Of a DNA stretch of 47,757 nt, positions 3,895 to 23,336 are shown one piece after another (within the stretch, counting starts at the first letter, position 1; each line of letters opens with the position of its first letter). The position numbers were made by a program, and so were the translations under genes. The notes under the pieces are model-generated. The model ran no database searches and was not told the origin of the DNA. It saw only the letters and a list, made by a program, of their open reading frames with translations. This DNA comes from a virus (lineage: Duplodnaviria; Heunggongvirae; Uroviricota; Caudoviricetes): IMG/VR virus record IMGVR_UViG_2529292906_000010, one strand, 5' to 3'.

Positions 3895-3921
3895 GATTTC
3901 CTACCATCGTAGATATAATAA

Positions 3922-5413: not shown

Positions 5414-5441
5414 AAGCCCCTGTTGCAAAGGGGCTTTTTTG
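5414..5441 (+). terminator. rho-independent terminator
   Basis: AGCCCCT-N-AGGGGCT stem followed by TTTTTT. Confidence 0.6.
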
Positions 5442-5450
5442 TGCTCATGG

Positions 5451-5562
5451 AATTATATAATTATAGATTTATATAAAAAGTGCTTTACAGGTGGGAAAAT
5501 ATTTCCTAGTGTTATACCCGAAACCGAGCGATACCCGCCCTGGTTAAACCGGAGATAACCCG
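5451..5562 (+). promoter_or_regulatory. conserved promoter-leader element, copy A
   Basis: Near-identical to 14348-14464 and 22011-22122; contains TATAATTATA palindrome, TTTACA (-35-like), GGGAAAA(A/T)ATTTCC, conserved leader and GGAGA RBS. Confidence 0.5.
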
Positions 5563-5943
5563 ATGAGCATGATTAAAATCCGCAAAAACGCTTTCCTTAA
5601 AATTCAAACTATCCTGGCTGGTTCTGTTGGCGTGATTTGCCGTTCTTCTTCAAGCCGCATCGATGACGGCTACGATGATGAGTATCGTGTGTCCTCGTGC
5701 GATGAGGCTTTAACCTGGCTGAAGGAGAATCAGGAACGTGCCCAGGTATATCTGGAAACAGAGAACGGCAATCAGATGCTGCGTATTAGCGGTCGTTATG
5801 GATTTGAAACTACATTCATTGCCTATTTTAATCAGGTTTACTTTGACAAGGAGCTGGCCTGGTACACTGATCGCATGAGCAAAAGCGAGCCAGCTCCGAT
5901 TACACCGCCGAACAATAAACCATTTTTATTCCTCGTTAAGTAA
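5563..5943 (+). CDS. hypothetical protein
   Basis: 126-aa ORF immediately after leader copy A. Confidence 0.5.
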   Translation: MSMIKIRKNAFLKIQTILAGSVGVICRSSSSRIDDGYDDEYRVSSCDEALTWLKENQERAQVYLETENGNQMLRISGRYGFETTFIAYFNQVYFDKELAWYTDRMSKSEPAPITPPNNKPFLFLVK

Positions 5944-5975: not shown

Positions 5976-6006
5976 GCGAGTGTTAATATTGTGCGAGGAG
6001 GATGCT

Positions 6007-7086: not shown

Positions 7087-8229
7087 TTATGGTCTGCTTT
7101 TCTGTGCCAGCTTATCAGCACATGTTTTTATCAGATCCTGTAGTGTCCTGGCTGGCAGGTTTGCATCCAGTACGCTGAGTATGCTGTTGTGATCTGCTTG
7201 GTCGACTACTTTGCCTGTCGGTGGTAGTAGCTTGAGCTGAGGATTCAGGTTTTCGTCAAAACTGATAAGTGCTCTGGCGTTTCTGAGCAGATCAAGAAGT
7301 AAGGCTGATATCACATCATCTTTAGTCATTGTTGGTAGATTTAGTGCCGCTTTAGTTTTCTCCGTCGCCTTGTCAAACTCTTTGATTAGTGTCTTGCGGT
7401 AGTTTGGTTCCGTTAATAGCCGATGATGTTCTGTTGCCGTTCGGATAATCTTTGTTTCCTGATACAGTCGGTTGTATAGCATTCGCTCGTATTCTGCCTT
7501 TAACACGCTGCTGATAGCGTTAAAGGCTTCAATGTAGGCCAGCTTGATATCCTTCACGCCTGGACCGTCGATACTTTCCATGAGCAAGGTAAATCCGTCT
7601 TTTGTCATGCGATAGATTGTTATTTCGCGGTCGCTTCCTTCCAGCGGTCGTTGTTCTTTAAAGAAGTGACGCGCCGCAGCCGTGCGAGGAATGCGTAACG
7701 CATCGATGGCCATAACGATGGAATTGTTTGTGGTGCTGAATGCTTGGGCAACATCGGCTGAGGTTGTGAGTGGCTCGTTGTTGCACACCTTAACGTAATA
7801 CATTGGTTTAGCGTTGAGCGTATCGACAACCTCACGAGCATTGTTTGGTGAGACGGTTACGGTCGCGGCCGTTTGCGCGTTCTGGTTGAAGTAGCAGTCT
7901 TCCAGCCGTTCGAATACATCCCATGCCTGATCGGTTTCGAGCATTTTAGCGTGACGTGCAGCCCCGCGTTCGGTCCAGAGGATGAGCTTTCTAACGTTAT
8001 TCGCGATGGTTTGAAAATCTCTTAAAGAGATTTTCAAACTTTGGAGATCTGTACCTTTTACAACTATGAAATGTTTTCCTTCTGTAAACCGGGACTTATT
8101 ACGGTGGTGATTTCTGTGAAGACATTCGACGCTACAGCCATATAGTTTGGCAAGCAGCTCCGTGGTGATAACGGGGAGCTGCTTATGCAGGATAGGCTGT
8201 AGGGTGTTAACGGTCGGAAGCGTTTTCAT
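7087..8229 (-). CDS. phage antirepressor (ORF6N/Rha-like N-terminus)
   Basis: 380 aa; N-terminal region resembles ORF6N/Rha antirepressor domains as recalled. Confidence 0.65.
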   Translation of the reverse strand: MKTLPTVNTLQPILHKQLPVITTELLAKLYGCSVECLHRNHHRNKSRFTEGKHFIVVKGTDLQSLKISLRDFQTIANNVRKLILWTERGAARHAKMLETDQAWDVFERLEDCYFNQNAQTAATVTVSPNNAREVVDTLNAKPMYYVKVCNNEPLTTSADVAQAFSTTNNSIVMAIDALRIPRTAAARHFFKEQRPLEGSDREITIYRMTKDGFTLLMESIDGPGVKDIKLAYIEAFNAISSVLKAEYERMLYNRLYQETKIIRTATEHHRLLTEPNYRKTLIKEFDKATEKTKAALNLPTMTKDDVISALLLDLLRNARALISFDENLNPQLKLLPPTGKVVDQADHNSILSVLDANLPARTLQDLIKTCADKLAQKSRP

Positions 8230-8417: not shown

Positions 8418-8582
8418 TGTGATGATTCCCTTAAAGGTTAAGGATACTCACCACCGTCAGGTTCCAATCATTGGGTGGTGAGACGTGCAGGGTTGGAACT
8501 ACCGGACACAATGACGAACCGGCGAGTCTTACGACTCCCCCGCACGCCCCACCATAATTTGGGTGTAGCAGTGCTTTACGCA

Positions 8583-8690
8583 TAAAAAAACCGCTAACGC
8601 GGTATGCGCCATTGTGTCTACGGGGTTCCAATCCCGACCGTAGATTTTGCTACGGCTCGGAAAGTGTCCACCAATGGCGCATTCATGTCA
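8583..8690 (-). ncRNA. candidate structured small RNA upstream of antirepressor operon
   Basis: Minus-strand hairpins (GCGCCATTG/CAATGGCGC; TCTACGG/CCGTAGA) ending in CCGCGTTAGCGG + T7 terminator at 8583-8605; no ORF. Confidence 0.25.
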
Positions 8691-9173
8691 ATACGGCGGG
8701 ATTTTAACAGAGACAACCACATAGCGTGGGTTTATTGGTAGGCAGAAACAAAAAAACCGCCCTATTGAGGACGGTTCTTTCGTGCTGATCGGATTCGCGG
8801 TCCTTTCAGCATTACGTTGTTGTATAAACAACCACGCAAGCACAAGCAGCAAGTTAATTTTACCCAAAAGGTAATAATAGTCCACTATTATGCTTCAAAA
8901 AATTGTGGTTCTTGTTGTGCCTGCAAACTCACAGATTGTGGGTAGGTTACTGATTTTGTGAAAATAAACGAGTTTTTTCGTTTAATTTCTTTCCTATTAC
9001 TAATCTTAAAATAATCGTAAAATACCTGTGGACCTTCCCGCCGATTCGCACCCGGGCACCGACTTTAGGGGAGGATTCTCCGTTGCCGTACATGCAAGCA
9101 CAAGCAGCCGTGCTTGCTCTCGCGTTGTTTTCGTCGGTGGGGATGCCGTGAAACGGCCTGTAAGGGCCATACA

Positions 9174-9296
9174 ATGAAAAAATACTGTATGTGTATTTTT
9201 ATCGTTGTTACTGGAGCTTTGTTTACGCCACATGGGGAGGGTTGGAAGATTACTGATAACGCTCTGAATGTGACGATAAACATTAGCAGCAAGTAG
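9174..9296 (+). CDS. small hydrophobic protein (40 aa)
   Basis: MKKYCMCIFIVVTGALFT... with AAGGG RBS; followed by terminator at 9302-9325. Confidence 0.3.
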   Translation: MKKYCMCIFIVVTGALFTPHGEGWKITDNALNVTINISSK

Positions 9297-9301
9297 CGAT
9301 T

Positions 9302-9325
9302 AGGCCCCTTCGGGGGCCTTTTTTA
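9302..9325. terminator. hairpin terminator
   Basis: AGGCCCC-TTCG-GGGGCCT followed by TTTTTT. Confidence 0.6.
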
Positions 9326-9546: not shown

Positions 9547-9795
9547 TTACTTCTGGTTGTATTGAGCCTTGAGTAACTCAAAAGATTTTGTCAGCACTTC
9601 TTTCAATGACATATCCATTGAGCTGGCGAACGTTTTGTACTCGCGTTTAAATTCAGGGTCGACGTTAAACGCCATTTGTGCCCCACCTGATTTGGTTCTG
9701 GCTGGCGTTTCAGTCGGGTCGAAAACCTGCGGTTGTTCGATCGATGGCGGTACGCCTTTGCTGTTCTTCTTTGGTGGTTTTGATGGTGCGGCCAT
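9547..9795 (-). CDS. ParG-like centromere-binding protein (probable ribbon-helix-helix)
   Basis: 82 aa; Pro/Lys-rich N-terminal tail then short structured C-terminus; directly downstream of parA; AGAGAGGA RBS. Confidence 0.5.
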   Translation of the reverse strand: MAAPSKPPKKNSKGVPPSIEQPQVFDPTETPARTKSGGAQMAFNVDPEFKREYKTFASSMDMSLKEVLTKSFELLKAQYNQK

Positions 9796-9807
9796 GTGTA
9801 TCCTCTC

Positions 9808-9840
9808 TTATATAAATCTATAAAACTATAATTATATATT
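9808..9840. repeat. TATAATTATA palindrome site D (between parA and parG-like gene)
   Basis: Core at 9827-9836; reverse complement carries ATAGTTTTATAGATTTATATAA flank as in leader copies. Confidence 0.5.
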
Positions 9841-10507
9841 ACGCGGCAGTAGTCAGAGCCTCAAGCTGGTTGATAATCCCCTGAATAACGTCGTCTGCTT
9901 TTTTGCGTGGCGCAACGTATGAGCACTCAATGAGGCTTAAGCCCTTATCCTGAGCTTTGCTCAGAGCTGGCTTGTGGGGAATGTACTTATCGACAACAAA
10001 GTATGGCGTATTAGCCAGGTACTCTTGGGCTTCAATATAGTCAGCTTCGTTTTCAGCCGCGCCGGAAAACACCATGCAAATTTTCTTGATTGGTACACCC
10101 TTTTTAACGATGCCGTGAGCTGTGTTAACGGTGGTTTCCAGGTCATCGGTAGAGAATCTGGTTGGCAAAATAACCATATCCAGAAATTCAGAGAGCTTCG
10201 GTACTGATTCAGATGCGTAGGCACCGCCATCAACGATAACCAGGTCGTATACTTCTGATTCGATGATTTTCTGGACTTGTGATGGCGTGCCGCACGGCTG
10301 CGCCGCGATTGCAGGTTCGATATTGTTGGCCATTCTGCGTTGTACCCAACGCGTTACCGTTCCGTTAAGCACATCCATATCGATCAGGCATACATTCCAG
10401 CCAGCCTTTGCATAAGCAACTGCTAAAGCACGAGCAATGGTTGATTTGGTTACGCCGCCTTTTCCGTTGAAAATACCTACAGATATAGTCATTTGTCGAG
10501 ACTCCAT
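9839..10507 (-). CDS. parA: partition ATPase ParA (ParA/MinD family, small type Ib)
   Basis: 222 aa; deviant Walker A GKGGVTKST near N-terminus. Confidence 0.85.
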   Translation of the reverse strand: MESRQMTISVGIFNGKGGVTKSTIARALAVAYAKAGWNVCLIDMDVLNGTVTRWVQRRMANNIEPAIAAQPCGTPSQVQKIIESEVYDLVIVDGGAYASESVPKLSEFLDMVILPTRFSTDDLETTVNTAHGIVKKGVPIKKICMVFSGAAENEADYIEAQEYLANTPYFVVDKYIPHKPALSKAQDKGLSLIECSYVAPRKKADDVIQGIINQLEALTTAA

Positions 10508-10512
10508 GCGTT

Positions 10513-10618
10513 TGATTATATAATTCTATAAATCTATATTTATAGAATGAGGTAAGCATAACCAACTTTTTGGCGGATGAAAAGTGTTTTATATAATTAT
10601 ATAAATCTATAATCATAT
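10513..10618. promoter_or_regulatory. par promoter/centromere-like region with two TATAATTATA-family sites
   Basis: TATAATTCTA at 10518-10527 and TATAATTATA at 10591-10600, directly upstream of parA. Confidence 0.4.
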
Positions 10619-10638
10619 AAGCGGGCGTTAGCCCGCTT
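10618..10638 (-). terminator. hairpin terminator
   Basis: GCGGGC-GTTA-GCCCGC stem after stop of gene 10643-11017. Confidence 0.45.
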
Positions 10639-10642: not shown

Positions 10643-11017
10643 TCAGAGGTCAGCTATCGTTGATATCAGTTGATTTGCTAGCTGTCGCTGTTTACGTGAG
10701 AGGGTTAGAGCAGCTTCTGAGCGGTCGCTAAGAGGGGTGTTTTCATCGAGAATCATGAGGCATACAGAAATAATAGCCCTGTTATATGCCATCAATGGCT
10801 GGCACAGCTTCGATATCGCTGGCACATCGTATTGTAAGGCCGTTTTGAGGCAGACTTTTTGTTCTGATGCCAGATGAAGGATAGATTCTATCCAGTCGAT
10901 ATCTTTCTCATTATCAATGAGTTGGCATAACATACACTCAATCGCTATGTTCAACGCTTGGATTTCGATTCCAGCAGTGATCAGAGTTTCGTTTTTATTG
11001 GCTGTATGTAATTCCAT
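10643..11017 (-). CDS. hypothetical protein
   Basis: 124-aa ORF downstream of the repressor gene. Confidence 0.5.
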   Translation of the reverse strand: MELHTANKNETLITAGIEIQALNIAIECMLCQLIDNEKDIDWIESILHLASEQKVCLKTALQYDVPAISKLCQPLMAYNRAIISVCLMILDENTPLSDRSEAALTLSRKQRQLANQLISTIADL

Positions 11018-11050: not shown

Positions 11051-11069
11051 AAACCACAAAGCGTGGTTT
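11051..11069. promoter_or_regulatory. operator-like palindrome AAACCAC-N5-GTGGTTT (may also act as terminator)
   Basis: AAACCACAAAGCGTGGTTT followed by T-run. Confidence 0.35.
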
Positions 11070-11807: not shown

Positions 11808-11929
11808 TTACCACATTTAGTGGTTTTCACACGGTAAGACGAGAGGTAGACCACAAATAGAAGGTTATTTTTGTTTCCCCATTGAAAAACTCACGATTTG
11901 TGGTTTTAATACCACATATCGTGGTTTAA
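11808..11929. promoter_or_regulatory. immunity operator/promoter region (OR-like) between repressor and Cro-like gene
   Basis: Palindromes ACCACATTTAGTGGT (11810-11824) and ACCACATATCGTGGT (11911-11925) plus half-sites at 11850 and 11891; TTGAAA -35-like at 11882. Confidence 0.5.
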
Positions 11930-11943: not shown

Positions 11944-12438
11944 ATGACCTTTCAGGAGTGGGTTGATGAAAATGGAGGCCAAATTGGTGTTGCCAGAAAG
12001 TTTGGCTTTACGTCATCACTGATTGGTGCCTGGTATCGCTTCGAGAGATTCCCTCGTGCGGATAACCTGACGCTGCTGGTGGCGTATTCGGAAGGCCGGA
12101 TTAATGTCCAGCAATGGGCGGCAGATTTTGCCGAACGTCAGCGCCAGCGTAGCGATGGCACATCGGTTCGGCAGAACAAGATCAAAGGGAATCTCCCTGT
12201 TAACTGCTTATCAAGGCTGAAAGCGGTTTTCTCTGAGCTGGGGATACCTGCGGAGCGTTGCAATCTACGCGGTCCGCGATTCATTGCTCGCTGGAAACAC
12301 TCACACGTAACCGTTTCAGAGGTTCGTGATGCGATTGCCGTGCTGGAGTTTAAGAATAAAGATTCCAGCGATATCGAGCTGATTCATAAGGAGATTAGCA
12401 ACGCCCGGCGTTCAGCACTTGGGAGGCTTGAGGAATGA
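11944..12438 (+). CDS. Cro/YdaS-like HTH regulator
   Basis: 164 aa; N-terminal Cro-like segment (GGQIGVARKFGFTSSLIGAWY); divergent from repressor. Confidence 0.5.
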   Translation: MTFQEWVDENGGQIGVARKFGFTSSLIGAWYRFERFPRADNLTLLVAYSEGRINVQQWAADFAERQRQRSDGTSVRQNKIKGNLPVNCLSRLKAVFSELGIPAERCNLRGPRFIARWKHSHVTVSEVRDAIAVLEFKNKDSSDIELIHKEISNARRSALGRLEE

Positions 12439-12950
12439 TGATTCTGGCCTTCTTTGGTGATAATCACCAGATTCAATCGCAGGTGGTGCACTACCTTGAT
12501 CAAACGATTAAAGGATTTGTTATCGATCATATTGATAACGATAGTAAACGTCTATCTGTAGAGCAGAAAATTGGACGTGTGCAGCGACTGGTTGCCAGCC
12601 GTAACAGACGTGACGCCGTAACAGTCGTCACGGGGATAACGGAGGTCATGGAGTACCAGATGTTGCTGCATCGTGGAGCTGTTTTCTGCGTTCTTCCTGG
12701 CATTCTGCCAGCAATTCTTGCTCGTGGTTTTGTCCCTATTGATGAGTCGTTTTTATATGTAACTCCAAGCCGTTCCCTTCTGGATTCGGAGGCGAAACGT
12801 CGCATTTATATGCTGCCGGACGAGGCATTTTCTGAATGTTACCGCCGTGAAATGAGGTTGGGTAAACGAGATGTGTCTGTTTCTCGTGATGGCAGGTTTT
12901 TAAGCAGCCGCACGGTGAAAAGCACCTGGAATGACGGGGGCCATCAATGA
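12435..12950 (+). CDS. hypothetical protein
   Basis: 171-aa ORF, overlapping start. Confidence 0.5.
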   Translation: MMILAFFGDNHQIQSQVVHYLDQTIKGFVIDHIDNDSKRLSVEQKIGRVQRLVASRNRRDAVTVVTGITEVMEYQMLLHRGAVFCVLPGILPAILARGFVPIDESFLYVTPSRSLLDSEAKRRIYMLPDEAFSECYRREMRLGKRDVSVSRDGRFLSSRTVKSTWNDGGHQ

Positions 12951-13180
12951 GTGGTTATGTTCGCGGTGCTGCGATGCATTGCCAGAATCCCCAATTCTGG
13001 CGCTTTCTGACCAGTAAAACAGGGAAGAACATTTCAAACAGTTCTGAGGCCTCTGTGATTCTGCGTGAGTTTTGCGGGATCTCATCCCGTAAAGAGCTGG
13101 CAAAGAACTACGCGGCCAGAAGCATGTATGTCCAGTTAATTAACGAGTTCAACCTCTTTATCAATGGTAAGGGGCGTTGA
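12947..13180 (+). CDS. hypothetical protein
   Basis: 77-aa ORF, overlapping start. Confidence 0.4.
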   Translation: MSGYVRGAAMHCQNPQFWRFLTSKTGKNISNSSEASVILREFCGISSRKELAKNYAARSMYVQLINEFNLFINGKGR

Positions 13181-13584
13181 TGAACGGACGTACACCAACG
13201 AAGAAAGAGAAACTTTATATACAAGCGGTGCTCACTCACGTGGGTTGCATAGCTTGCATTATTGATGGCCGTGAAATTGATAATCCAGAGCTGTGGACGG
13301 AGCTGCATCACGATCCTGATTACGGCAGCGTTGATGAGAATTGCCACTTCCATAGCTTTGGGTTGTGCGCACCACATCATCGCGGTGTTGTGCCTGGTGG
13401 TGGGCGTGTGCCTCCGCATATTGCCGTTCGTCACCCTCCCCTGAGTAATTGTGCTCGCTTTGTTGAGCGTTATGGCACCGATGAATTTTTGTGTGCGCAG
13501 ACGTGGGAGCTGTTGCCGCAGTCAGTTAAAGACGAAATTGGGTTTGATCTTAGTCTTGGTGAAGTACCAGGGGATACCAAATGA
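13177..13584 (+). CDS. His/Cys-rich protein, possible HNH-type nuclease (Ref/NinG-like); tentative
   Basis: 135 aa with H/C clusters (HVGCIAC...HHDPDYG...CHFH...CAPHH). Confidence 0.4.
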   Translation: MMNGRTPTKKEKLYIQAVLTHVGCIACIIDGREIDNPELWTELHHDPDYGSVDENCHFHSFGLCAPHHRGVVPGGGRVPPHIAVRHPPLSNCARFVERYGTDEFLCAQTWELLPQSVKDEIGFDLSLGEVPGDTK

Positions 13585-13913
13585 GATATACCGGCTTTCG
13601 CAAACCAGCGACCAGAAAAAGCAAATACGGCAATAAAAAAACGGTTGTCGATGATATCGCTTTTGATAGCAAAAAAGAGGCTGATTACTACTGCGAACTG
13701 AAGCTACTGAGAAAAGCTGGCCGCGTTGTGACGTTTCTTATGCAGGTGCCTTTTCATCTGCCAGGTGGTGTCGTTTATAAACTTGATTTCATGGTGTTTT
13801 ATGACGATGGGACGATTGATTGTGTCGACACTAAAGGTGTGCGAACAGACGTCTACATCATGAAGAAAAAGCAGGTAGAGGCGCTTTATCCCGTCACGAT
13901 ACGGGAGATCTGA
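13581..13913 (+). CDS. hypothetical phage protein
   Basis: 110-aa basic protein (KYGNKKTVVDDIAFDSKKEADYY). Confidence 0.5.
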   Translation: MRYTGFRKPATRKSKYGNKKTVVDDIAFDSKKEADYYCELKLLRKAGRVVTFLMQVPFHLPGGVVYKLDFMVFYDDGTIDCVDTKGVRTDVYIMKKKQVEALYPVTIREI

Positions 13914-13916
13914 ACA

Positions 13917-14294
13917 GTGAGACGCGATCTGGATAGCTTGTTTGAGCTATGGGCGCTGTGGGTGCGCAATGGCTGCAACGCCCGTAGCGGTTTCGCGTCG
14001 ATGTTAGAAATGATGATGGTTACGCGTTGCCAGTTTACCGGAGGGGGCGGCGCACCAAATGACTCACTGGAAACCAGTATCGAGGGAGCGGTGACGGCCC
14101 TCACGGTAGTTGATGAGACTGCGGCGCTGGTTGTCCGAATTGAATACGGGGCGTGGGAGATTCGGGGCCTCGACATAAATGCACCGCATATTGATAAAGC
14201 CCACGCCCTTTCTCTTAGTCTCAGACAGTATCGCCGGAAGCTGGCAAAAGCCAGGGCGTATGTTGTCGACTACTTGAAAAAGAGAAGAGAATGA
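13917..14294 (+). CDS. putative antitermination protein Q-like
   Basis: 125 aa; N-terminal LFELWALW motif recalled from phage Q antiterminators; GTG start with GGAGA RBS; followed by leader copy B. Confidence 0.4.
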   Translation: MRRDLDSLFELWALWVRNGCNARSGFASMLEMMMVTRCQFTGGGGAPNDSLETSIEGAVTALTVVDETAALVVRIEYGAWEIRGLDINAPHIDKAHALSLSLRQYRRKLAKARAYVVDYLKKRRE

Positions 14295-14347
14295 AAGTGT
14301 CATTTTGAGCTGTTTTGGTGATTTGTAGGCACCGGGAATATCGGAAA

Positions 14348-14464
14348 ATCTATAAATATATAATTATAGATTTATATAAAAAGTGCTTTACAGGTGGGAA
14401 AAAATTTCCTAAGGTTATACCCAAAACCGAGCGATACCCGCCCTGGTTAAACCGGAGAAATCTG
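14348..14464 (+). promoter_or_regulatory. conserved promoter-leader element, copy B
   Basis: Near-identical to copies A and C; TATAATTATA core at 14359-14368. Confidence 0.5.
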
Positions 14465-15532
14465 ATGAATAAACAAGTAATTATTTCTGACTGGATCAAC
14501 AACCCTAACAGCCTGTTGAGCACTGATACTGGCTATAGATTACGTCATGTTAATGGCCGTATGGTCAAAAGCGATGAGCACGAAACCTTTTTCGTTGTTG
14601 AAGACGATGGACGTCTTTATGAGGATGGTCACTCTTATGAATCCCAAACAGGTTGTATCCCTGCAGAGTTGGTAGACGTAACAGAAAAGCTGCGCAAAGC
14701 ATGGCTTGAACAGCAGCAGCGCGGAGATGATTACGTAAATACCTATCAGGAACGCCAGAACGCGCGTCTTGCCCGATATATTGCTCGTGCAGAAAAAGCC
14801 AGAAAAGAAGGTGCGGTGGCGCATAAGCGAGCGCATGAACTGTTGGATGTGATCCCGTTAGGCCAGCCGATTTTAGTTGACCATTATAGCGCGAAAGGCC
14901 ATCGCCGCCGTTTGTCTAAAGCTGATGCGTTATTCAGAAAATCGTTTGTTGAGTGTGAAAGCAGAGCATCGTACTACGAAAGCAAAGCCGCAGGTGTCGG
15001 CCGTAATGGAGTTTCGTCTGATGATCCTGATGCGCTATTTAAGTTGCTTCGTAAGCTGCAAGGCTGCATGAAGTCACACATCAAAATGAAGGCCGCAAAT
15101 AAGGCTATTCGCAAATACAAAAAAGACCAATTACAGCAGCTTTCCGCATTAATTGACCTTGAGTTTACTGAAAGCGAAGCCAAAGGGTTACTCGCCGGAG
15201 ATTTCTGTGGGCACATTGGCTTCCCTTCATACTCACTGAGTAACAATAATGCCGAAATCAAACGACTACAGAGCCGTATTAAGGAGCTTGAATCGGTCAA
15301 GTCTGTAACAGGAGCACAGCGCGAAGAATACGACGGCTTTTCTATGGAGATAGATCCAGAGGATAACCGTATCCTGTTTTATTTCCCTGGCAAACCAGAG
15401 GCAAACATTCGTTCGCTGCTTAAATCACGCGCCTTTAAGTGGAGTCCAACCCGTAATGCATGGGTTCGCAAGATTACTCCAAACGCCCTGGCTGATGCCC
15501 GATATCTGAAAGAATCGCTATTGAAAGCCTGA
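14465..15532 (+). CDS. hypothetical protein (356 aa)
   Basis: Starts at ATG 14465 after GGAGA RBS; the longer ORF from 14315 would read through the leader. Confidence 0.6.
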   Translation: MNKQVIISDWINNPNSLLSTDTGYRLRHVNGRMVKSDEHETFFVVEDDGRLYEDGHSYESQTGCIPAELVDVTEKLRKAWLEQQQRGDDYVNTYQERQNARLARYIARAEKARKEGAVAHKRAHELLDVIPLGQPILVDHYSAKGHRRRLSKADALFRKSFVECESRASYYESKAAGVGRNGVSSDDPDALFKLLRKLQGCMKSHIKMKAANKAIRKYKKDQLQQLSALIDLEFTESEAKGLLAGDFCGHIGFPSYSLSNNNAEIKRLQSRIKELESVKSVTGAQREEYDGFSMEIDPEDNRILFYFPGKPEANIRSLLKSRAFKWSPTRNAWVRKITPNALADARYLKESLLKA

Positions 15533-15566
15533 CAGTAAGTCTACGGCGGGATGTCTCCCGCTGTAT

Positions 15567-15598
15567 ATAGAATTATATATTTATATAAATGTATAAGG
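15567..15598. repeat. TATAATTATA-family site F (variant AATTATATA)
   Basis: ATAGAATTATATATTTATATAAATG immediately upstream of gene 15610. Confidence 0.4.
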
Positions 15599-15609
15599 AC
15601 GCCTCGACA

Positions 15610-15891
15610 ATGAAACGCAAAATTATTAACCCCCAAGATGTGATTAATTTCCTGACCGATCACCCATGTTCAAAAGTGGACGTAATCGCGGAACACATTG
15701 GTGTGTCGCAGAACTCTATGCGTTGCAGACTGAGAAGCATGGTTGCCGAAGGACAGATAACAACCAGGAAAATAAATGGTTGCCTGTACTACTCCGCTAA
15801 ACCGGAATTGCCATTTGGCATGAATCCTAACTCCATGTTGTTTAACACCTTATTAGCCAAAGTTAAGCCGTTGAGAGGGGCTGTGGCATGA
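15610..15891 (+). CDS. hypothetical DNA-binding protein
   Basis: HTH-like segment VDVIAEHIGVSQNSMRCRLRSM; alternative start 15589. Confidence 0.5.
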   Translation: MKRKIINPQDVINFLTDHPCSKVDVIAEHIGVSQNSMRCRLRSMVAEGQITTRKINGCLYYSAKPELPFGMNPNSMLFNTLLAKVKPLRGAVA

Positions 15892-16253
15892 GCATCAAAA
15901 CCCATACCGGAATAATCATTACCAATGATGGTGAGAAAAGAGTGAAGTTGCGCGAAACGCCGACAACCTGGTGTGTTGGTCCGAAAGAAACATATCGCAA
16001 GGAAGATGGCCGTCGTTGTGGGGCACCACTTTCCCGCCGTCGCCTCCTTTTGAGCACGATAAAACCTATCGGGCAGGTTGAGCAACCAACGACTCCGGTA
16101 ACGAAGATTTCAGACAAGAGTCTGTCAAACCTGATCGCCGATGCGGACAAGGTGCTGGAGCGGAACACCCCCGTTGCAGATGAGGAATGGTGGCAGGATT
16201 TCCGAGCCGCAATGCTAGAGCTTCAGGAACGTCGTCGGGAGGAGTTGAAGTGA
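15888..16253 (+). CDS. hypothetical protein
   Basis: 121-aa ORF, overlapping start. Confidence 0.5.
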   Translation: MSIKTHTGIIITNDGEKRVKLRETPTTWCVGPKETYRKEDGRRCGAPLSRRRLLLSTIKPIGQVEQPTTPVTKISDKSLSNLIADADKVLERNTPVADEEWWQDFRAAMLELQERRREELK

Positions 16254-16441
16254 GCAAGAAAAATGCCGGATGGGTCAGGCCAATGAAGGCGAATAAACAT
16301 CATTATTTTAATGAAGGTGAAGTAACCAGCATTTGCGGCCGTTGGATGTATTTTGGTGATTACCGTGAGCCAGACACTTTTGAGAGTCCTGATGATTGCG
16401 TGTCTTGTCGCCGGAAATTGAACAAGGTGGCTTCTAAATGA
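16250..16441 (+). CDS. hypothetical protein with CxxC pair (possible zinc ribbon)
   Basis: GTG start overlapping upstream stop; ICGRW...CVSCRRK. Confidence 0.4.
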   Translation: MSKKNAGWVRPMKANKHHYFNEGEVTSICGRWMYFGDYREPDTFESPDDCVSCRRKLNKVASK

Positions 16442-17121
16442 AAGAACGTGGTGTTGTTTTTAATGACGATATGGTTAGGGCCATCCTCGAAGGAAGGAAG
16501 ACGCAGACTCGCCGACCCGTAAAAAATGTCAGGGCCGATAACTGCCTGGTTATCCGTAAACCGACAAAGAAACGCAATGGTGTCTATACCCACGTTATGG
16601 ATGCACCTGAACATAGTTTATGCCCGTTCGGTAACGTTGGTGATCGCATATGGGTCCGTGAAGCGTGGGCGATATTAGGCAATGAGGATGGTTGCAGTGT
16701 GGACTGGAACGACAACCTTTGTCGTGGCGATGAGAAGAACGCAGCAAGGATTTATCGGGCCAGTTGTGAGCAAAAACCGGGGGATTATGGCTTATGGTCG
16801 ATACCCGATGATGCCGACTGGAAGCCTCACACTGTGAATGAAAAGTTTGATGGCGGGTGGTGTCCATCAATTCACATGCCGCGCTGGGCTTCGCGTATTT
16901 TGCTGGAAATTACCGACGTGCGTGTGGAACGGCTGCATGACATGAGCGAGGCAGATGCTAAAGCGGAAGGCGCATCTCCGGCGACGTACAAGATTACACA
17001 GCCGGAAGCTGTTTATCGCGTTGGTTTTGGTGATATCTGGCGCGGTATTTACGGGCAAGAGAACTGGCTATCTAACCCGTGGGTATGGGTAATTGAGTTT
17101 AAGCGTATTCAGGAAGCATAA
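16438..17121 (+). CDS. conserved phage protein of unknown function
   Basis: 227 aa; N-terminal FNDDMVRAILEGRKTQTRRP motif. Confidence 0.5.
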   Translation: MKERGVVFNDDMVRAILEGRKTQTRRPVKNVRADNCLVIRKPTKKRNGVYTHVMDAPEHSLCPFGNVGDRIWVREAWAILGNEDGCSVDWNDNLCRGDEKNAARIYRASCEQKPGDYGLWSIPDDADWKPHTVNEKFDGGWCPSIHMPRWASRILLEITDVRVERLHDMSEADAKAEGASPATYKITQPEAVYRVGFGDIWRGIYGQENWLSNPWVWVIEFKRIQEA

Positions 17122-17123
17122 CT

Positions 17124-17465
17124 ATGAGCAAATCACTTAATGCACGTTGTATTCGCCGTTGGGAAGTCAAATTTAAGCCTATTTGTGATTCGAAAGTTAG
17201 TCCTCACATGCGTAAGAGTTTTTTGTGTGGGATGCGTGAATTGGGGCTTATTACGGCTGAAAACATGGTTGAAAGCATGGCTGAGAAAAATGCCAAGTTT
17301 GACTACGACGGCAAGGACACTGGCTGGTCGCCTGAGTTTTCTAACTGGTATGAAGCGCATAGAGAAAAGTATCGTAAAGAGGCTCGTGACCATCTGGATG
17401 AAGAAGCCACAAACGATGAGATCGATAAAGAAATTGAAACAGAGCTGGAGTCTTGGAATGACTAA
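17124..17465 (+). CDS. hypothetical protein
   Basis: 113-aa ORF with acidic C-terminus. Confidence 0.5.
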   Translation: MSKSLNARCIRRWEVKFKPICDSKVSPHMRKSFLCGMRELGLITAENMVESMAEKNAKFDYDGKDTGWSPEFSNWYEAHREKYRKEARDHLDEEATNDEIDKEIETELESWND

Positions 17466-18183
17466 CAGCACAGCAATTAATTATCAGGCGCTGCGTGAGA
17501 TAGCAAAACAGGCAACACCAGACGAATGGGTCGCATTTATTTCGACGGATACTGGTACTTATGCGGTGCACACGCCCGGTGATGAACGATGTGAAGACGT
17601 TATCAAATGGACCGGCTTTGATGGACAGAAAAATGCAGAGAACAACGCTCGTTATGTTGCCGCGTTCAACCCAAAGGTTGCTTTGGCACTACTGGATGAA
17701 CGGGAAGCCAAAGACAAAGCATGGTCCGCACAGGACAACCATATCAACCAGCAGGCTGAACGAATTGAATCGCTGGAGAAGAAGAATGGAGAGCTGGGCA
17801 GAGAGCTGGAATCCGCAGAGAAGCGCATTGCAGAACTGAAAAAACAATGCGCTGAATGGGAGCGGAAAGCATTAAGCAATTTTGAAGAGTGTGCTGCGAT
17901 GGCTGAACGTATCGAAGAGTTGGAGCAGGCTACCACAGGGCAGGACGCCAATGTAAACAGCCAACAGGAACGCGTGGCTCAATCAGCTAATAGGCACGTA
18001 TATCACTACAACGCAGTGAGCAATGTTAGCGGCATTACTATGTCCGGGATTGCGCAGTCACCTTTCAGAATCAAATCGCAATCCGACCTTGAAGAGTTTA
18101 AAAGCGCACTTAGCAAGGTTTGTGGTTTCCATGCAACAGCAGTCACATCTCTTTCATATCTTGGGCGTGAGGAAGAAGAATAA
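17458..18183 (+). CDS. Ead/Ea22-like protein
   Basis: Starts MTNSTAINYQALREIAKQATPDEW (recalled Ea22-like N-terminus) then coiled-coil; the longer ORF from 17140 is not supported. Confidence 0.5.
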   Translation: MTNSTAINYQALREIAKQATPDEWVAFISTDTGTYAVHTPGDERCEDVIKWTGFDGQKNAENNARYVAAFNPKVALALLDEREAKDKAWSAQDNHINQQAERIESLEKKNGELGRELESAEKRIAELKKQCAEWERKALSNFEECAAMAERIEELEQATTGQDANVNSQQERVAQSANRHVYHYNAVSNVSGITMSGIAQSPFRIKSQSDLEEFKSALSKVCGFHATAVTSLSYLGREEEE

Positions 18184-18187
18184 AGCG

Positions 18188-18379
18188 ATGAAAAACCGTA
18201 AAGCAAAGATGCTTATCTCCCGTGTATACAAACTTTGCTATCCCAGCCAGTGGTTGAGAGTTAGCAATCGCCGTGTGGTGTTGTACTTATATTCTGGAAT
18301 TGCCAGAGAGGGAGTCAAAGAGAAGCGCAGCGCGGCGCAAAACCGCTGGAAAAAACACTTGCGCACTAAAGGAGCCTGA
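18188..18379 (+). CDS. hypothetical small protein
   Basis: 63-aa ORF from ATG 18188. Confidence 0.3.
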   Translation: MKNRKAKMLISRVYKLCYPSQWLRVSNRRVVLYLYSGIAREGVKEKRSAAQNRWKKHLRTKGA

Positions 18380-18589
18380 TATGTCTATTGCCGCAAGTTA
18401 CACCATGCATCTCTATTGTGACTGCCGCCAGTGTACGGAAGGTGTATATCCAGTGCCAGACTTCGGTGAGTATATCGGTACGTCATGGGCTGGCTGTGCA
18501 AAAGAGGCGCGCAAGGATGGCTGGCGAATAAGCAAAGACAAAACGCGTGCTTTTGCGCCAGGGCATAAAGTTTTGAGGATTAACAAATG
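18380..18589 (+). CDS. hypothetical Cys-rich small protein
   Basis: 69 aa from ATG 18380; CDCRQC motif. Confidence 0.4.
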
Positions 18590-18889
18590 ACCACTTTTAC
18601 CGACAAAGAACTGATTAAAGAAATCAAAGAGCGCATAGGCAGCTTGGATGTGCGAGACAATATTGAGCGCCGGGCTTATGAAATAGCGTTAGCCTTGCTG
18701 GAAGCAGAACCGGTGGCATATCAGTATCGCCAGTGGGATGCAGAATATGATGAATGGGGAGAATGGGAAGATTGCGGGGAATGTGCTTTCGAATGGTTTG
18801 TTGAGGAAGAGAAATGTCAGGGGGCAGGTGTTCAGACCCGTAAGCTATATGCCGCGCCGCCAGTTTCGGTAACTCCGGGTGTTGGATAA
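18587..18889 (+). CDS. hypothetical protein
   Basis: 100-aa ORF, overlapping start. Confidence 0.5.
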   Translation: MTTFTDKELIKEIKERIGSLDVRDNIERRAYEIALALLEAEPVAYQYRQWDAEYDEWGEWEDCGECAFEWFVEEEKCQGAGVQTRKLYAAPPVSVTPGVG

Positions 18890-19264
18890 GCTGTAGTGAG
18901 AATCCATGCGCTTACGAGCAGTATTCAGAGCGGGTAATGAAGCACATACAACCGAAAACATGGCAGAAACTGGACTCTATGGGAGTTAAGTTGGAGAAGA
19001 TTACTCAACTTAAGCAGTGGCATATCGGCGAATATTATGGAAGTCTTGGCCGGGATGTTCGTTTGGCAAAAAGTTGAGTATTGTTTTTTATTGATTGATT
19101 AACCACGATTTGAAGGTTTTTTATGGGAAAACCTTGTTTTAGGTGGTAACTGGGTGTAGTGTTTCATTTAACGTAGTAAAACTGCGTTAAGCGATTACCG
19201 CGTAATTTGTTGCTTTATGAAGCCCTGCCTTTTCGGTGGGGCTTTTTTTTTAACGAGGATTTCA

Positions 19265-19660
19265 ATGTCAGCAGAACCAATTTCCGGTACGGCCGTTGCT
19301 GCTGGTGGCCTGATGGGTGCCAGCGTTTTTGGTATTGCAACTGGTATTGATTACGGCGTTGTATTCGGGGCATTTGCTGGCGCTGTTTTCTATGTTGCTA
19401 CAGCGGTGAATATTAGCCGTCTCAAGCTGATTGGCTATTTCTTTACATCGTTCATTGTTGGAGTGATTGGAGCGCCGTTAGTTGGCTCATTTCTTGCCAA
19501 ATGGACCAGCTACAACGATCGTCCTCTTGATGCGCTTGGTGCGGTTATTGTGGCTGCATTGACAATTAAAATCCTCACGTTCGTAAACAGCCAGGATCTC
19601 GGTAGCATCTTTGGAATGCTTTCCCGCTTACGTGGAGGGGGTTCAAATGGTAAGCAGTGA
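19265..19660 (+). CDS. putative holin
   Basis: 132 aa with several hydrophobic helices and charged C-terminus; GAGGA RBS; first gene of lysis cassette. Confidence 0.5.
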   Translation: MSAEPISGTAVAAGGLMGASVFGIATGIDYGVVFGAFAGAVFYVATAVNISRLKLIGYFFTSFIVGVIGAPLVGSFLAKWTSYNDRPLDALGAVIVAALTIKILTFVNSQDLGSIFGMLSRLRGGGSNGKQ

Positions 19661-19943
19661 CCCGTCAGCACTGATTAATGCGGTGCTTTGCACAGTAATA
19701 GTAATGGCGCTGATGCTTTATCGACGGAAAGACTCCAGGCATCGTCCATTTGTTTCCTTTCTGGCTTATATCTACGTCATTGTATACGCCAATGTTCCCT
19801 TCCGTTATGTGTTCGGTCTTTATCAAGAATCCCACTGGCTGGTGGTTATTGGAAATCTGATTATCTGCATCGTTGTTCTGTATTTCAGGGGCAATCTGGC
19901 GCGGATAGTTGACGCATTAGGGTTTAATCATGACCAAAGATGA
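19647..19943 (+). CDS. membrane protein (holin/antiholin candidate)
   Basis: 98 aa, hydrophobic segments, between holin and endolysin. Confidence 0.45.
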   Translation: MVSSDPSALINAVLCTVIVMALMLYRRKDSRHRPFVSFLAYIYVIVYANVPFRYVFGLYQESHWLVVIGNLIICIVVLYFRGNLARIVDALGFNHDQR

Positions 19944-20472
19944 GATTTTTAACAGCGTTCTTGGAAAAGAGGGCGGCTATGTGGATCACCCTGACGACAA
20001 GGGAGGCCCAACAAAGTGGGGCATTACTCAGAACACTGCCCGTGCTCATGGATACCGTGGCGATATGCGCGATTTAACCCGCGAACAGGCACTGGAAATC
20101 CTTGAGGCTGATTACTGGTACGGACCACGCTTTGATCAGGTGGCCGCATTATCCTCTGATATTGCCGCAGAGCTGTGTGACACGGGGGTGAACATGGGGC
20201 CAACAGTGGCGTCAAAAATGCTTCAACGCTGGCTGAATGTGTTCAACCTGCGCGGGAAGCTGTATCCCGATTTGGATGCAGACGGACGAATCGGTCCACG
20301 TACCATTAATGCGCTACGTGCTTATCTTGGGAATCGGGGAAAAGACGGCGAACGGGTGATGCTGACGTCGCTGAACTGTACGCAGGGCGAACGCTATCTG
20401 GAGCTGGCGGAGAAGCGCGAGGCTAATGAGTCGTTTGTCTACGGCTGGATGAAAGAGCGAGTGGTGGTATGA
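19930..20472 (+). CDS. endolysin, GH108-type N-acetylmuramidase with peptidoglycan-binding domain
   Basis: GGYVDHPDDKGGPTKWGIT signature near N-terminus. Confidence 0.85.
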   Translation: MTKDEIFNSVLGKEGGYVDHPDDKGGPTKWGITQNTARAHGYRGDMRDLTREQALEILEADYWYGPRFDQVAALSSDIAAELCDTGVNMGPTVASKMLQRWLNVFNLRGKLYPDLDADGRIGPRTINALRAYLGNRGKDGERVMLTSLNCTQGERYLELAEKREANESFVYGWMKERVVV

Positions 20473-20747
20473 CTGGTTTGAAAGCCGTTTTGTCATTTAT
20501 CGGCACCGTTATATTGGTTGCATTCGGTGCGTTTGGTTTTGGTCGTATGAAGGGGCGAGAAAAGGCCGAAGATGAAGCTGAAAAGCAGCGCATTAATGAG
20601 AATGCAGCCGCCGTAAAAGCCACTGCGGAGCGGCGTATAGAAGTGACAAAAGAGGTGGGGAATGTACAGCAGAGTGTTAACCATATGGCTGATGACGATG
20701 TTGATCGCGAGCTGCGGGAGTCGTGGAAGCGTCCCGGTGGTGGTTGA
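20469..20747 (+). CDS. i-spanin (Rz-like)
   Basis: N-terminal TM helix then charged coiled-coil; directly after endolysin. Confidence 0.6.
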   Translation: MTGLKAVLSFIGTVILVAFGAFGFGRMKGREKAEDEAEKQRINENAAAVKATAERRIEVTKEVGNVQQSVNHMADDDVDRELRESWKRPGGG

Positions 20748-20871
20748 TACCGCCTGTGATTGGGTAAAGCCCATCTACCTGACTGATCACGACATCGATG
20801 TTATGGACCGCCAGACAAAGAAAGATATTCTGGCTCATAACAGGGCATGGGAAATCAACTGCCGAAAGTAA
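20662..20871 (+). CDS. o-spanin (Rz1-like lipoprotein), overlapping i-spanin
   Basis: Lipobox LIASC; probable start at internal Met (20692/20698). Confidence 0.55.
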   Translation: MYSRVLTIWLMTMLIASCGSRGSVPVVVDTACDWVKPIYLTDHDIDVMDRQTKKDILAHNRAWEINCRK

Positions 20872-20912
20872 TATATATTTCTATAATTATATAAATATAT
20901 AGTTACAACATT
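20871..20912. repeat. TATAATTATA palindrome site G
   Basis: Core at 20882-20891 in AT-rich DNA after lysis cassette. Confidence 0.45.
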
Positions 20913-20946: not shown

Positions 20947-21029
20947 TGTTTGTCTGATATGCCGCCGCGCCCAAAAATCCTGAATTTATTGGCTGGGATT
21001 TTCGTGCGCGGCGCCACACCAGACAAACA
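20947..21029. repeat. long imperfect inverted repeat upstream of tRNA
   Basis: TGTTTGTCTG...GCCGCCGCGC (20947-20970) pairs with GCGCGGCGC...CAGACAAACA (21006-21029); loop has AAAATCC/GGATTTT. Confidence 0.4.
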
Positions 21030-21039: not shown

Positions 21040-21115
21040 GGCCCCTTAGCTTAGTGGTTAGAGCAGGCGACTCATAATCGCACGGTCATCGGTTCAAATC
21101 CGGTAGGGGCCACCA
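21040..21115 (+). tRNA. tRNA with CAU anticodon (Met or Ile2/lysidine type)
   Basis: 76-nt cloverleaf: acceptor GGCCCCT/AGGGGCC, anticodon loop CTCATAA, T-loop GGTTCAAATCC, 3' CCA; recalled as close to E. coli tRNA-Ile2. Confidence 0.8.
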
Positions 21116-21423
21116 ATTCACCCTCACACATAAAGATAAGCGCGGTGGAGTTACTTCTTCGTGCTCATCTTTATGCGTGCCTGGTGCACATTTCGGGAAG
21201 CCGTTGGTTAGTGAGTACAGGCAGGGCCTGTTATCCGCAAAGGGGTAAAAGCTGGAGCGGCACGGAACTGTAGCCGTGTTACCAAAACAGCGTTGTCGGG
21301 CGATATCCGGCACACAACAGGCAAGGGCATTAATCAGTCTGGTTAGTGCCCTTTTCGTTGTGTCTGCTGTAGAGCTGGCCAGCGTTATGACTGCCGGAGA
21401 TAAGCGCCGGAGGCACAACTAAC

Positions 21424-22011
21424 ATGGAGGCAATTGCATTGTTTAATCTGATTTATGCAGATCCCCCCTGGGAATACAAAGATAAGTGTAAGGATGGGAA
21501 TCGTGGAGCTGGTTTTAAGTATCCAACGATGAAAGCTGAGGATATTGCTCGTATTCCTGTCTGGCAGCTTGCTAATCCTGAATCGTGTTTGTTGGCCATG
21601 TGGTGGGTTCCGACTCAGCCAGAAGAAGCGTTGCTGGTGGTGAAAGCATGGGGATTCAGGCTTATGACCATGAAGGGCTTCACATGGAACAAATGTGGTA
21701 GCCGACAACCAGATAAGCTGGTGATGGGGATGGGGCATATGACTCGTGCAAACAGTGAAGATTGCTTGTTTGCGGTAAAAGGCAAATTGCCGACCCGCCT
21801 TGATGCGGGGATCATTCAGTCGTTTACATCGCCTCGTCTGGAGCATTCTCGGAAGCCTGATGTGGTTCGTGACAAGCTGGTAAGGCTGTTAGGTGATGTT
21901 CCTCGTATTGAGCTGTTTGCTCGCGGTGATTTACCTGATGGTTGGCATGGCTGGGGCAACCAGTGCAATGGAGGTATCCAGTTGCATGATGCTCTCTGGC
22001 AAGTGGCATAG
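21424..22011 (+). CDS. orphan N6-adenine DNA methyltransferase, MT-A70 family
   Basis: DPPW motif (IYADPPWEY) near N-terminus; no adjacent restriction endonuclease. Confidence 0.75.
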   Translation: MEAIALFNLIYADPPWEYKDKCKDGNRGAGFKYPTMKAEDIARIPVWQLANPESCLLAMWWVPTQPEEALLVVKAWGFRLMTMKGFTWNKCGSRQPDKLVMGMGHMTRANSEDCLFAVKGKLPTRLDAGIIQSFTSPRLEHSRKPDVVRDKLVRLLGDVPRIELFARGDLPDGWHGWGNQCNGGIQLHDALWQVA

Positions 22012-22122
22012 AATTATATAATTATAGATTTATATAAAAAGTGCTTTACAGGTGGGAAAAAATTTCCTAAGGTTATACCCGAAACCGAGCGATACCCGCC
22101 CTGGTTAAACCGGAGAAATCTG
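22011..22122 (+). promoter_or_regulatory. conserved promoter-leader element, copy C
   Basis: Near-identical to copies A and B; core at 22017-22026. Confidence 0.5.
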
Positions 22123-22419
22123 ATGAAAGTACAAGACCGTGAAGTAGTAAAAAACCTCCTGCAATACCTGACCTCAAAAAACCTGACGGGCAGCGTTGAG
22201 TTCCGTGAAGCGTTAAAACATTTCAACGTCACTACGGTTTATCGTTGGGAAAACAAACATTCTGAAAGACCGTATGTGGTGGATGTTTTTGCGCCTGATA
22301 TTGAGTGCGGTTTTGAGCGTCATTCGTTCAAGGAGAAACATTCTGCTGATTTTTTTGTGAGGTTGTATGTGCGGCAGGAGATGATGAGTGATGCGTATTT
22401 CCTTCAAACGTGCGACTGA
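22123..22419 (+). CDS. hypothetical protein
   Basis: 98-aa ORF after leader copy C. Confidence 0.5.
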   Translation: MKVQDREVVKNLLQYLTSKNLTGSVEFREALKHFNVTTVYRWENKHSERPYVVDVFAPDIECGFERHSFKEKHSADFFVRLYVRQEMMSDAYFLQTCD

Positions 22420-22588: not shown

Positions 22589-22610
22589 ACCGTAACGATA
22601 ACGAACAACG

Positions 22611-22637
22611 AGCCTCGGCAATTGCCGGGGCTTTTTT
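22611..22637 (+). terminator. rho-independent terminator
   Basis: CCTCGGCAA/TTGCCGGGG hairpin + TTTTTT. Confidence 0.55.
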
Positions 22638-23308: not shown

Positions 23309-23336
23309 AGCCTCGCGTGTCGCGGGGCTTTTATTT
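23309..23336 (+). terminator. rho-independent terminator
   Basis: CCTCGCG-TGT-CGCGGGG + T-rich tail. Confidence 0.5.

Follow-up and report, generated by a model that had tools for sequence, protein, structure and literature searches.

Among described late-gene antiterminators, the Q protein of phage 21 (Q21) and Q933W (PF06530; 6P18, 6P19, 6JNX) are the closest to the gene considered here. The body of Q21 resembles sigma region 4 (10.1101/651190), and its H1-H2 linker, H2 and H2-H3 linker make up a torus that narrows the RNA exit channel (Yin et al. 10.1101/651190) and shifts by up to 40 Å upon loading (10.1101/651190). Downstream of phage 21-type Q genes, within ~100 nt, come a promoter, a direct repeat that we read in the sequence as TGAGCAAA-TGAGCAAC, and a terminator. 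Two remote Q-like antiterminators with experimental support, BrrG of the Bartonella gene transfer agent (10.1101/2024.11.20.624540) and AlpA of Pseudomonas aeruginosa (PMC7969949), are small, were recognised as Q-like chiefly via structure, and have as their target a late or lysis operon located at some distance, with a long leader and a terminator ahead of it. Here, a gene at 13917-14294 (+) was analysed in a 47,757-nt stretch of Caudoviricetes DNA (IMG/VR record IMGVR_UViG_2529292906_000010), the whole of which is called the window. An earlier, sequence-only reading had taken its product for a Q-like antiterminator and a repeated leader just downstream, leader copy B, for a counterpart of the lambda PR'-qut region. 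Our results indicate that this Q-like protein is very probably homologous to Q21 and, on balance, probably serves as an antiterminator that lets RNA polymerase through the stops before the lysis and virion genes. Leader B is a composite promoter region.

Relationship of the 125-aa protein to phage 21 Q

The open reading frame (ORF) noted earlier is real, and it is conserved. It begins with GTG, has a GGGAGA Shine-Dalgarno sequence 8 nt upstream of the start, and encodes 125 aa with the LFELWALW motif in place (SLFELWALWV, residues 8-17). Among related loci, given L numbers in this text, the start codon is GTG in L010 and TTG in L011. Records of 97-99.8% identity (vB_YpM_39/41/44, NZ_CP028194.1) annotate the ORF as a coding sequence and call its product hypothetical. 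Thirty-one close homologues, all unnamed, and 130 distant ones were found, the latter by searching a profile of the close family against 1.84 billion representatives; three of the distant members, when looked up, lay on short contigs that told nothing further. Two profiles were used below, A2 from the close homologues and A3 from 112 of the 130 distant relatives.

It was A3 that revealed the relationship to Q21. When all PDB sequences were searched with A3 by hmmsearch, phage 21 Q was the sole significant match (E 2.6e-5; next 0.24), with A3 positions 4-91 aligned to Q21 11-95 and the LELWGAWV helix in common. Alignment of A3 with Q21 (from phage 2851) by hhalign gave 93% probability and E 3.5e-7, pairing residues 2-78 with Q21 13-89, so that the torus region and the first half of the sigma-4-like body are alignable; the negative control, P1 Lpa, gave 0.14%. 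Furthermore, 10 of the 112 distant relatives match PF06530 (Phage_antitermQ; best E 1e-4), and some match ECF sigma models. The Q-like protein shares with Q21 the N-terminal helix motif L-E-L-W-x-x-W, and in its AlphaFold model (pLDDT 77) it appears to resemble Q21 in an all-helical fold with a C-terminal helix-turn-helix (HTH), which is formed in the model by helices 91-97 and 102-124 with a short turn between them. A Foldseek search of the PDB with this model placed Q21 structures at all of ranks 1-4, yet with E values of merely 0.3-0.5. In BFVD, the same fold search found no Q, and the neighbours there have either no function or uncurated, metagenome-derived names (RNA polymerase alpha subunit, Sigma70, anti-sigma F). 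The Q21 torus aligns to residues ~18-50 (GFASMLEMMMVTRCQFSGGGG), the most conserved stretch of the family, modelled with pLDDT <50.

A second resemblance extends over the full length. The Q-like protein matches NCBIfam NF051483, the PA0613 family, weakly (21.3 bits, E 2.5e-4, residues 1-123 against 1-117 of 119), far under the curated cut-off of 100 bits, and is therefore not a member; the same model is weakly matched by 58 of the 112 relatives (best E 6.7e-9). The literature searched yields no assigned function for this family. In PAO1, PA0613 lies just upstream of the holin gene PA0614 and the long tailocin operon of the R/F-pyocin cluster. The Q-like protein is outside PF06530 as now defined and is nearer in sequence to the uncharacterised PA0613 family, while its own family, PHROG 5285, has no function assigned. 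We conclude that the 125-aa protein is a remote, compact, highly diverged relative of the Q21 lineage. By the same resemblance, the PA0613 family may be a Q21-like antiterminator too.

Early operon, terminators and proposed mode of action

The Q-like gene does not head the rightward gene array, as the sequence-only reading had it. It is the sixth and last gene of an early operon that begins at 11944 and ends at 14294, the six genes of which overlap or nearly abut. The order before it is a Cro-like gene, two unknown genes, a small ORF, a gene for a Ref-like RecA-dependent nuclease and a DUF1064 gene, which PHROG assigns to Holliday junction resolvases. This order mirrors the nin region-Q order of lambdoid phages, in which NinG/RusA precede Q in phages 2851, HK639 and yong1, and the gene of Q21 likewise ends its early operon after recombination-nuclease genes. 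The proposed lambda-like placement of Q is thus borne out, the gene closing the operon behind one Ref/NinG-like gene and one DUF1064 gene of resolvase-like type. Eleven diverged loci retain the block parG-parA-cI, early operon ... Ref-Q-like at 34-93% protein identity, and DUF1064 was detected in 5 of them. In the complete genomes of Pseudomonas phage PARCL1pr and Vibrio phage K303, the homologue again stands third or fourth in a short operon that faces the gene for the repressor.

The earlier reading had put every gene between 11944 and 47735 on the + strand, and their equivalents in annotated records agree. The array holds four strong intrinsic terminators (Table 1) that must be read through, which sustains the earlier idea of transcripts that could traverse it if antiterminated; as in phage 21, same-strand lysis and virion genes lie behind intrinsic terminators. 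The lysis cassette is indeed ~5 kb from the Q-like gene. Between the T-run of the terminator at 19219-19254 and the holin ATG (19265) are 13 nt, with space for the GAGGA ribosome site only. Since a promoter does not fit into this gap, any holin transcript must pass the terminator, which may be regarded as a functional analogue of tR'. In L010 and L011, the same terminator is found after the homologue of the 46-aa ORF, and in Pseudomonas phage PARCL1pr a 14-bp-stem terminator stands ~20 nt before a small-ORF-lysozyme cassette.

Directly upstream of the 19219-19254 terminator lies a noncoding core (19131-19189) with 90-100% identity to L010/L011, as against 30-70% in its flanks and 50-57% in the neighbouring 46-aa protein. 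Within the core are TTGTTT-17-TAGTGT (19134-19162), a candidate for a weak promoter, and a palindrome with 10-bp arms, TTAACGTAGT-AAA-ACTGCGTTAA (19168-19190). As a possible PR'/tR' analogue, the core together with the terminator is no worse a candidate than leader B and may be a better one. When the pre-terminator regions of more distant lineages were aligned, no trustworthy common motif appeared. The element ACCAC-N5-GAAGGTT occurs both at 19102-19118 and, in the cI-cro region, at 11850-11866. When the genes at 15888-19077 were scanned against PHROG, they gave no other recognisable late regulator, and the sole additional regulator candidate is a MarR/FaeA-like winged-helix protein (15610-15891).

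The data show the homology, the place of the gene, and where the terminators lie, how strong they are and how well they are conserved; antitermination activity and contacts with RNA polymerase are what we infer. Upon removal of the repressor, the CI-repressed early operon would make the 125-aa protein. This would then join RNA polymerase, with the segment at residues ~18-50 acting as the Q21 torus does at the RNA exit channel, and the polymerase carrying it would resist the terminators at 19219, 21323, 22610 and 23309 on the same strand. Loading may take place at leader B, at the core 19131-19189 or at leader C, the latter two being candidates as good as leader B; that leader B is the loading site seems unlikely.

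Several observations weigh against antitermination by a Q21-like protein. A Pfam scan of the protein gave no model at E<=0.01, a phmmer search of the PDB with the single sequence gave no match, and A2 found no antiterminator, only a weak Tc3 transposase HTH (E 0.19). A match to an antiterminator family, the absence of which would speak against the sequence-only reading, is lacking in the direct Pfam scan only and is present at the profile level, where A3 finds Q21. The sequence homology to Q21 spans the N-terminal two thirds alone, the C-terminal third being left unaligned by hhalign. Compared with Q21, which has 162 aa, an HT[loop]H insertion and a Pfam match, the Q-like protein is 37 aa shorter, shows no such insertion in its model, and has a net charge of ~0 in the torus-equivalent segment instead of +4. 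Q21 also has an 8-bp subsite pair and a sigma-dependent pause element. No pair of Q-specific, directly repeated 8-bp subsites next to a promoter was identified here, and neither was a clean sigma-dependent -10-like pause element in the initially transcribed region; with predicted starts, the candidate site for the latter reads GATACC in the window leaders (the critical last T being absent), GATAGT in L010/L011 and CAATCT/CACACT in L019. No sequence relationship to BrrG or AlpA was tested or found, and these two differ in that their binding sites and pause elements have been mapped, with none mapped for the Q-like protein. In addition, in place of the one terminator within ~100 nt for Q21, there are several here, located 0.5-5 kb from the candidate promoters, as compared with ~100-200 nt at most in phage 21.

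Table 1. Features of the window relevant to the Q-like gene, the repeated leader and the 8-bp arrays, with array units by lineage
Feature	Position	Strand	Details
Early rightward promoter	11882..11910	+	TTGAAA-17-TTTAAT; drives early operon 11944-14294
CI-type operators ACCAC-N5-GTGGT	11890-11904, 11911-11925		overlap early promoter
Q-like protein, parts	residues in next column		helix 1 LFELWALW; conserved torus-like segment ~18-50; predicted sigma-region-4-like HTH body 50-124
Array B	14348..14379	.	four contiguous 8-bp AT-rich units ATCTATAA ATATATAA TTATAGAT TTATATAA
Sigma-70-type promoter	14387..14415	+	TTTACA-17-TAAGGT; predicted start near 14422
Spacer palindrome TGGGAAA-AAA-TTTCCTA	14395..14411	.	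operator-like
Leader 3' part / predicted 5' untranslated region (UTR)	14416..14464	+	ACCGAGCGAT...AAACCGGAGA; GGAG at 14454-14457
Leader copy A	5445..5574	+	array + promoter + UTR; terminator 5414-5436 before it
Leader copy C	22006..22135	+	array + promoter + UTR; heads late region
Core, ultra-conserved, noncoding, 60 nt	19131..19189	+	candidate lysis-control site
Strong intrinsic terminator	19219..19254	+	11-bp stem, 9 T; kept in L010, L011
Lysis cassette	19265..20747	+	two holin-family genes, GH108 endolysin, small downstream ORF
Intrinsic terminator	21323..21353	+	after tRNA gene 21040-21112, before MT-A70 methylase gene
Strong intrinsic terminator	22610..22633	+	first after leader C
Strong intrinsic terminator	23309..23329	+	second after leader C; before ParB-like, terminase and virion genes
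Eight dispersed four-unit arrays	5445-5476, 9808-9839, 10516-10547, 10589-10620, 14348-14379, 15565-15596, 20871-20902, 22006-22037		units TTATATAA/TTCTATAA
ParA (type Ib) and 82-aa ParG-like genes	9547..10507	-	ParG-like product likely binder of 8-bp arrays; not in Q module
Array unit, window, L010, L011			TTATATAA; ParG-like strand AFNV / SFNV
Array unit, L012-L015, L020			GATATA / TATATC; ParG-like strand LLLRL / LLLQL
Array unit, L016, L017			TTAAATAA; ParG-like strand NFNV
Array unit, L019			TTAAAGAW; ParG-like strand NFNV
Array unit, L021			TTCGTKMT; ParG-like strand NFKR

The repeated leader and the dispersed 8-bp arrays

Leader copy B lies near the stop codon of the Q-like gene, as previously reported, starting 54-57 nt downstream and running into the ATG at 14465. 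It is one of three ~127-nt copies (5448-5574, 14351-14477, 22009-22135) with 83-95% identity and unrelated flanks. Copy A heads the gene 5563-5943 and an XRE-HTH gene (6004-6279), and downstream of copy C come small ORFs and a pair of strong terminators. Three components follow one another in leader B, namely a ParG-type 8-bp array, a promoter whose spacer holds a palindromic operator, and a conserved UTR of ~43 nt that ends at the ATG of a DUF3560 gene (14465-15532). The promoter is the top-scoring candidate in all three copies, and seven leader copies, drawn from three lineages, retain it as TTkwmr-17-TAnnnT. The repeated "leader" of such genomes can accordingly be a stack of independent control elements, here a partition-protein operator, a promoter and a second operator, and not one RNA element. 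In L012-L015 and L020, no such leader follows the Q-like gene, only an array with a spacer of ~20 nt.

In L019, the promoter spacer contains TAGGTC-AAAAA-GACCTA, with compensatory changes in both arms of the palindrome. Within the window, the 17-bp palindrome T(A/G)GGAAA-N3-TTTCCTA occurs in -35/-10 spacers at 3887-3903, 5492-5508, 14395-14411 and 22053-22069. Because the fourth copy sits in an otherwise unrelated promoter, TTGCCA-17-TACCAT at 3879-3907, the palindrome behaves as a DNA operator and not as an RNA hairpin. It may be bound by the XRE-HTH protein (6004-6279), by the Q-like protein or by products of 3922-4508. A structured leader RNA was rejected, its fold being no better than shuffled (z = -0.6), with no Rfam match at gathering or E<=1 level. 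Nut-like boxA/boxB elements were rejected as well: the "boxA-like" GTGCTTTACA is not kept in L019 and is better explained as a -35 element, and the boxB hairpin lies within the promoter spacer, with a fourth copy in the unrelated promoter at 3879-3907.

The palindrome-bearing promoters open another possibility, that the Q-like protein is a sigma-region-4-like activator of late or middle promoters with the logic of P1 Lpa and no processive antitermination, binding the spacer palindrome of four promoters with weak -10 elements (3879, 5484, 14387, 22045). We consider this unlikely. The palindromes are centred near -20 beside poor -10 hexamers, and the late promoters of P1, similarly, carry a 9-bp inverted repeat that is the Lpa site (PMC10695390). 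P1 promoters of this kind are likewise dispersed, with a common palindrome near -20 and no good -35/-10 pair, and the P1 lpa gene, repressor-controlled as the Q-like gene is, also directly precedes a late promoter of the target type. The ECF sigma matches of some relatives would suit such a role. However, there is no homology to Lpa in the hhalign control, and P1 is absent from the tblastn matches. The N-terminal helix and the torus region, where the sequence similarity to Q21 falls, have no counterpart in sigma region 4, and activation alone leaves unexplained how the holin is expressed behind a terminator abutting its ribosome site. Unlike the promoters of P1, those here show a -35 that can be recognised, and the lysis and late genes stand behind strong terminators. 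A palindrome, moreover, suits a dimer, whereas Q21-type proteins bind direct repeats as monomers; the XRE-HTH protein is an equally good candidate for its binder, and the palindrome is absent in L012-L015, L016, L017, L020 and L021.

The leaders begin with AT-rich arrays, which also occur elsewhere in the window. Their palindromic unit TTATATAA is seen 14 times in the window. The arrays at 10516 and 10589 are located upstream of parA and that at 9808 between parA and the 82-aa gene (9547-9795, -), while the remaining five precede + strand operons, lytic or accessory. The 82-aa product comprises a disordered tail, a short extended segment and helices at 47-59 and 62-81; it has no Pfam or PDB match and no sequence match to ParG, its fold being merely compatible. 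As in the ParF-ParG system of TP228 (parH/OF arrays), a small ParA stands beside a disordered-tail strand-helix-helix protein, and arrays with an 8-bp period and direct and inverted units lie upstream of parA. TP228 differs in having ACTC boxes instead of TTATATAA-like units, and in that the four-unit arrays here are dispersed over eight sites, five of them before lytic or accessory operons. The unit differs from one related lineage to another, but its period is 8 bp throughout, and in every case it is found both upstream of parA and at other operon starts. Over five unit classes, it changes together with the strand by which the 82-aa protein is predicted to read DNA (Table 1), NFNV, for instance, going with TTAAAKAA. 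It is not tracked by the Q-like recognition helix, as SLRTYKRKL/SLRTYKRRL is common to the GATATA and TTAAAGAW lineages, and L016 and L017 have their units in common and different recognition helices.

Since palindromic 8-bp units in mixed orientation match the operator/centromere pattern of TP228 ParG (PMC3130281), the AT-rich box is best read as an operator/centromere of a ParG-type partition protein. The covariation with the ParG-like protein led us to reject it as a Q-binding element. CI was rejected as its binder also, CI-type sites being ACCAC-N5-GTGGT. The distribution of the arrays and the covariation suggest a partition protein with a second role, that of a regulator which binds operators across the genome. 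Omega of pSM19035 and the dispersed centromeres of N15 offer a likeness for such a double role. A start context, (A/G)GGA(G)-N-CTCGACAA-ATG, recurs right after arrays that have no long leader (15594-15612; 10490-10507, -), for example as AAGGACGCCTCGACAATG, and as GGAGTCTCGACAAATG at parA; it is also found in L010-L015, L019 and L020, and leaves scarcely any space for a separate promoter. The array at 15565 is abutted by a GC-rich hairpin, GCGGGA-TGTC-TCCCGC (15546-15563), and like hairpins abut the arrays of relatives (L010 2744-2760, L012 3150-3170), sometimes oriented as opposite-strand terminators.

The behavior of the arrays also bears on the strict form of the earlier proposal, in which leader B is a PR'-qut analogue, with the Q-like protein binding the 8-bp repeats and loading on polymerase paused in the leader, and with copies A and C acting alike. 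Q21 binds two 8-bp subsites arranged as a direct repeat (10.1101/651190), and four contiguous 8-bp units follow the Q-like gene; an array is present within 0-1 ORF after this gene in the nine loci checked (L010-L015, L019-L021) and further downstream in L016 and L017, where the intervening ORFs were not checked. Even so, the model is improbable. Changes in the unit go with changes in the beta-strand of the ParG-like protein, whereas the recognition helix of the Q-like protein does not follow them. The ParG/TP228 pattern (PMC3130281) is seen in the arrays that flank parA and in the palindromic units, which occur in both orientations, and the arrays precede maintenance genes as well. Nor was a terminator found between leader B and its gene. 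With these points, the lack of a clean pause element and of RNA structure, and the lineages that do without the leader (L012-L015, L020), the PR'-qut analogy for leader B is not supported.

The weakest alternative, very improbable in our view, is that the Q-like protein is some other DNA-binding regulator, for example a lysis-lysogeny repressor or anti-repressor or a partner of host sigma, which would resemble Q21 merely through shared ancestry of the sigma-4-like fold: no curated model recognises it, neither PHROG 5285 nor the BFVD neighbours point to a curated function, and its early-operon place beside the repressor in the Pseudomonas and Vibrio phages suits an early regulator, but conservation is strongest in the torus-aligned segment and not in the HTH, and terminator-guarded lysis genes recur downstream.

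Antitermination by a Q21-like protein thus being preferred, a wider reading can be offered, which is speculative and, taken as a whole, rather unlikely to hold. PHROG 5285, its relatives and the PA0613 family would together form a fourth, compact (~125 aa) Q-type class that is missed by current models. In this element, the Q-like protein would load at sites different from all known Q-binding elements and take polymerase past at least four terminators, and the ParG-like protein, sitting on the arrays of eight promoters, would link plasmid segregation with the repression of these operons. If true, the operons would be under a two-layered control that has been described in no phage. A Q21-like antiterminator in this position would provide a testable handle on the switching-on of the lysis and virion genes, extend the Q21 lineage to far shorter proteins and beyond lambdoid phages, and hint at a possible function for the PA0613 family.

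The plasmid prophage and its other features

The window is almost the whole of a circular plasmid prophage, with a contractile tail of P2/Mu type, whereas the host element of Q21 is a lambdoid phage. Segment 13100-15600 has 97% identity to the 49-kb Yersinia phages vB_YpM_39/41/44 and 97-99.8% identity to non-mobilizable E. coli plasmids of 46-50 kb. PLSDB holds 64 records of this 46-50-kb E. coli plasmid prophage, one of them in the reference strain ATCC 25922; the element is thus common, and its regulatory genes are all annotated as hypothetical. The annotated twin NZ_CP028194.1 encodes RepA, ParA, a RelE toxin pair, a Rha antirepressor and a CI-like repressor, together with the lysis functions and a virion module of the contractile-tail type.

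Operators of the form ACCAC-N5-GTGGT, perfect or nearly so, occur at 2262-2276, 8716-8730, 11053-11067, 11810-11824 and 11911-11925, that is, in the cI-cro region and also ahead of repA, of a 124-aa gene (10643-11017) and of the C4/isrK-Rha operon. This scatter resembles that of the P1 repressor operators, and P1 is alike in being a plasmid prophage with C4 antisense RNA immunity. Rfam matches above the gathering score were obtained for C4 antisense RNA, isrK and ryfA at 8471-8559 (-), 8584-8656 (-) and 9028-9324 (+), respectively. They adjoin a Rha-family antirepressor gene (7087-8229, -), and together with it make up an immI-like immunity module. In Gifsy-1, isrK is tied to a cascade from antirepressor to antiterminator.

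The tRNA gene between the lysis cassette and the methylase gene, annotated in the Yersinia phage record as tRNA-Met, has a long inverted repeat rich in GC ahead of it, at 20949-21029. Repeats were also observed within two coding regions of the late part. A 731-aa ORF (39175-41370) contains three 42-nt segments at 120-nt spacing (40638-40919), and the tail-fibre gene has three tandem 132-nt repeats at 46278-46673.

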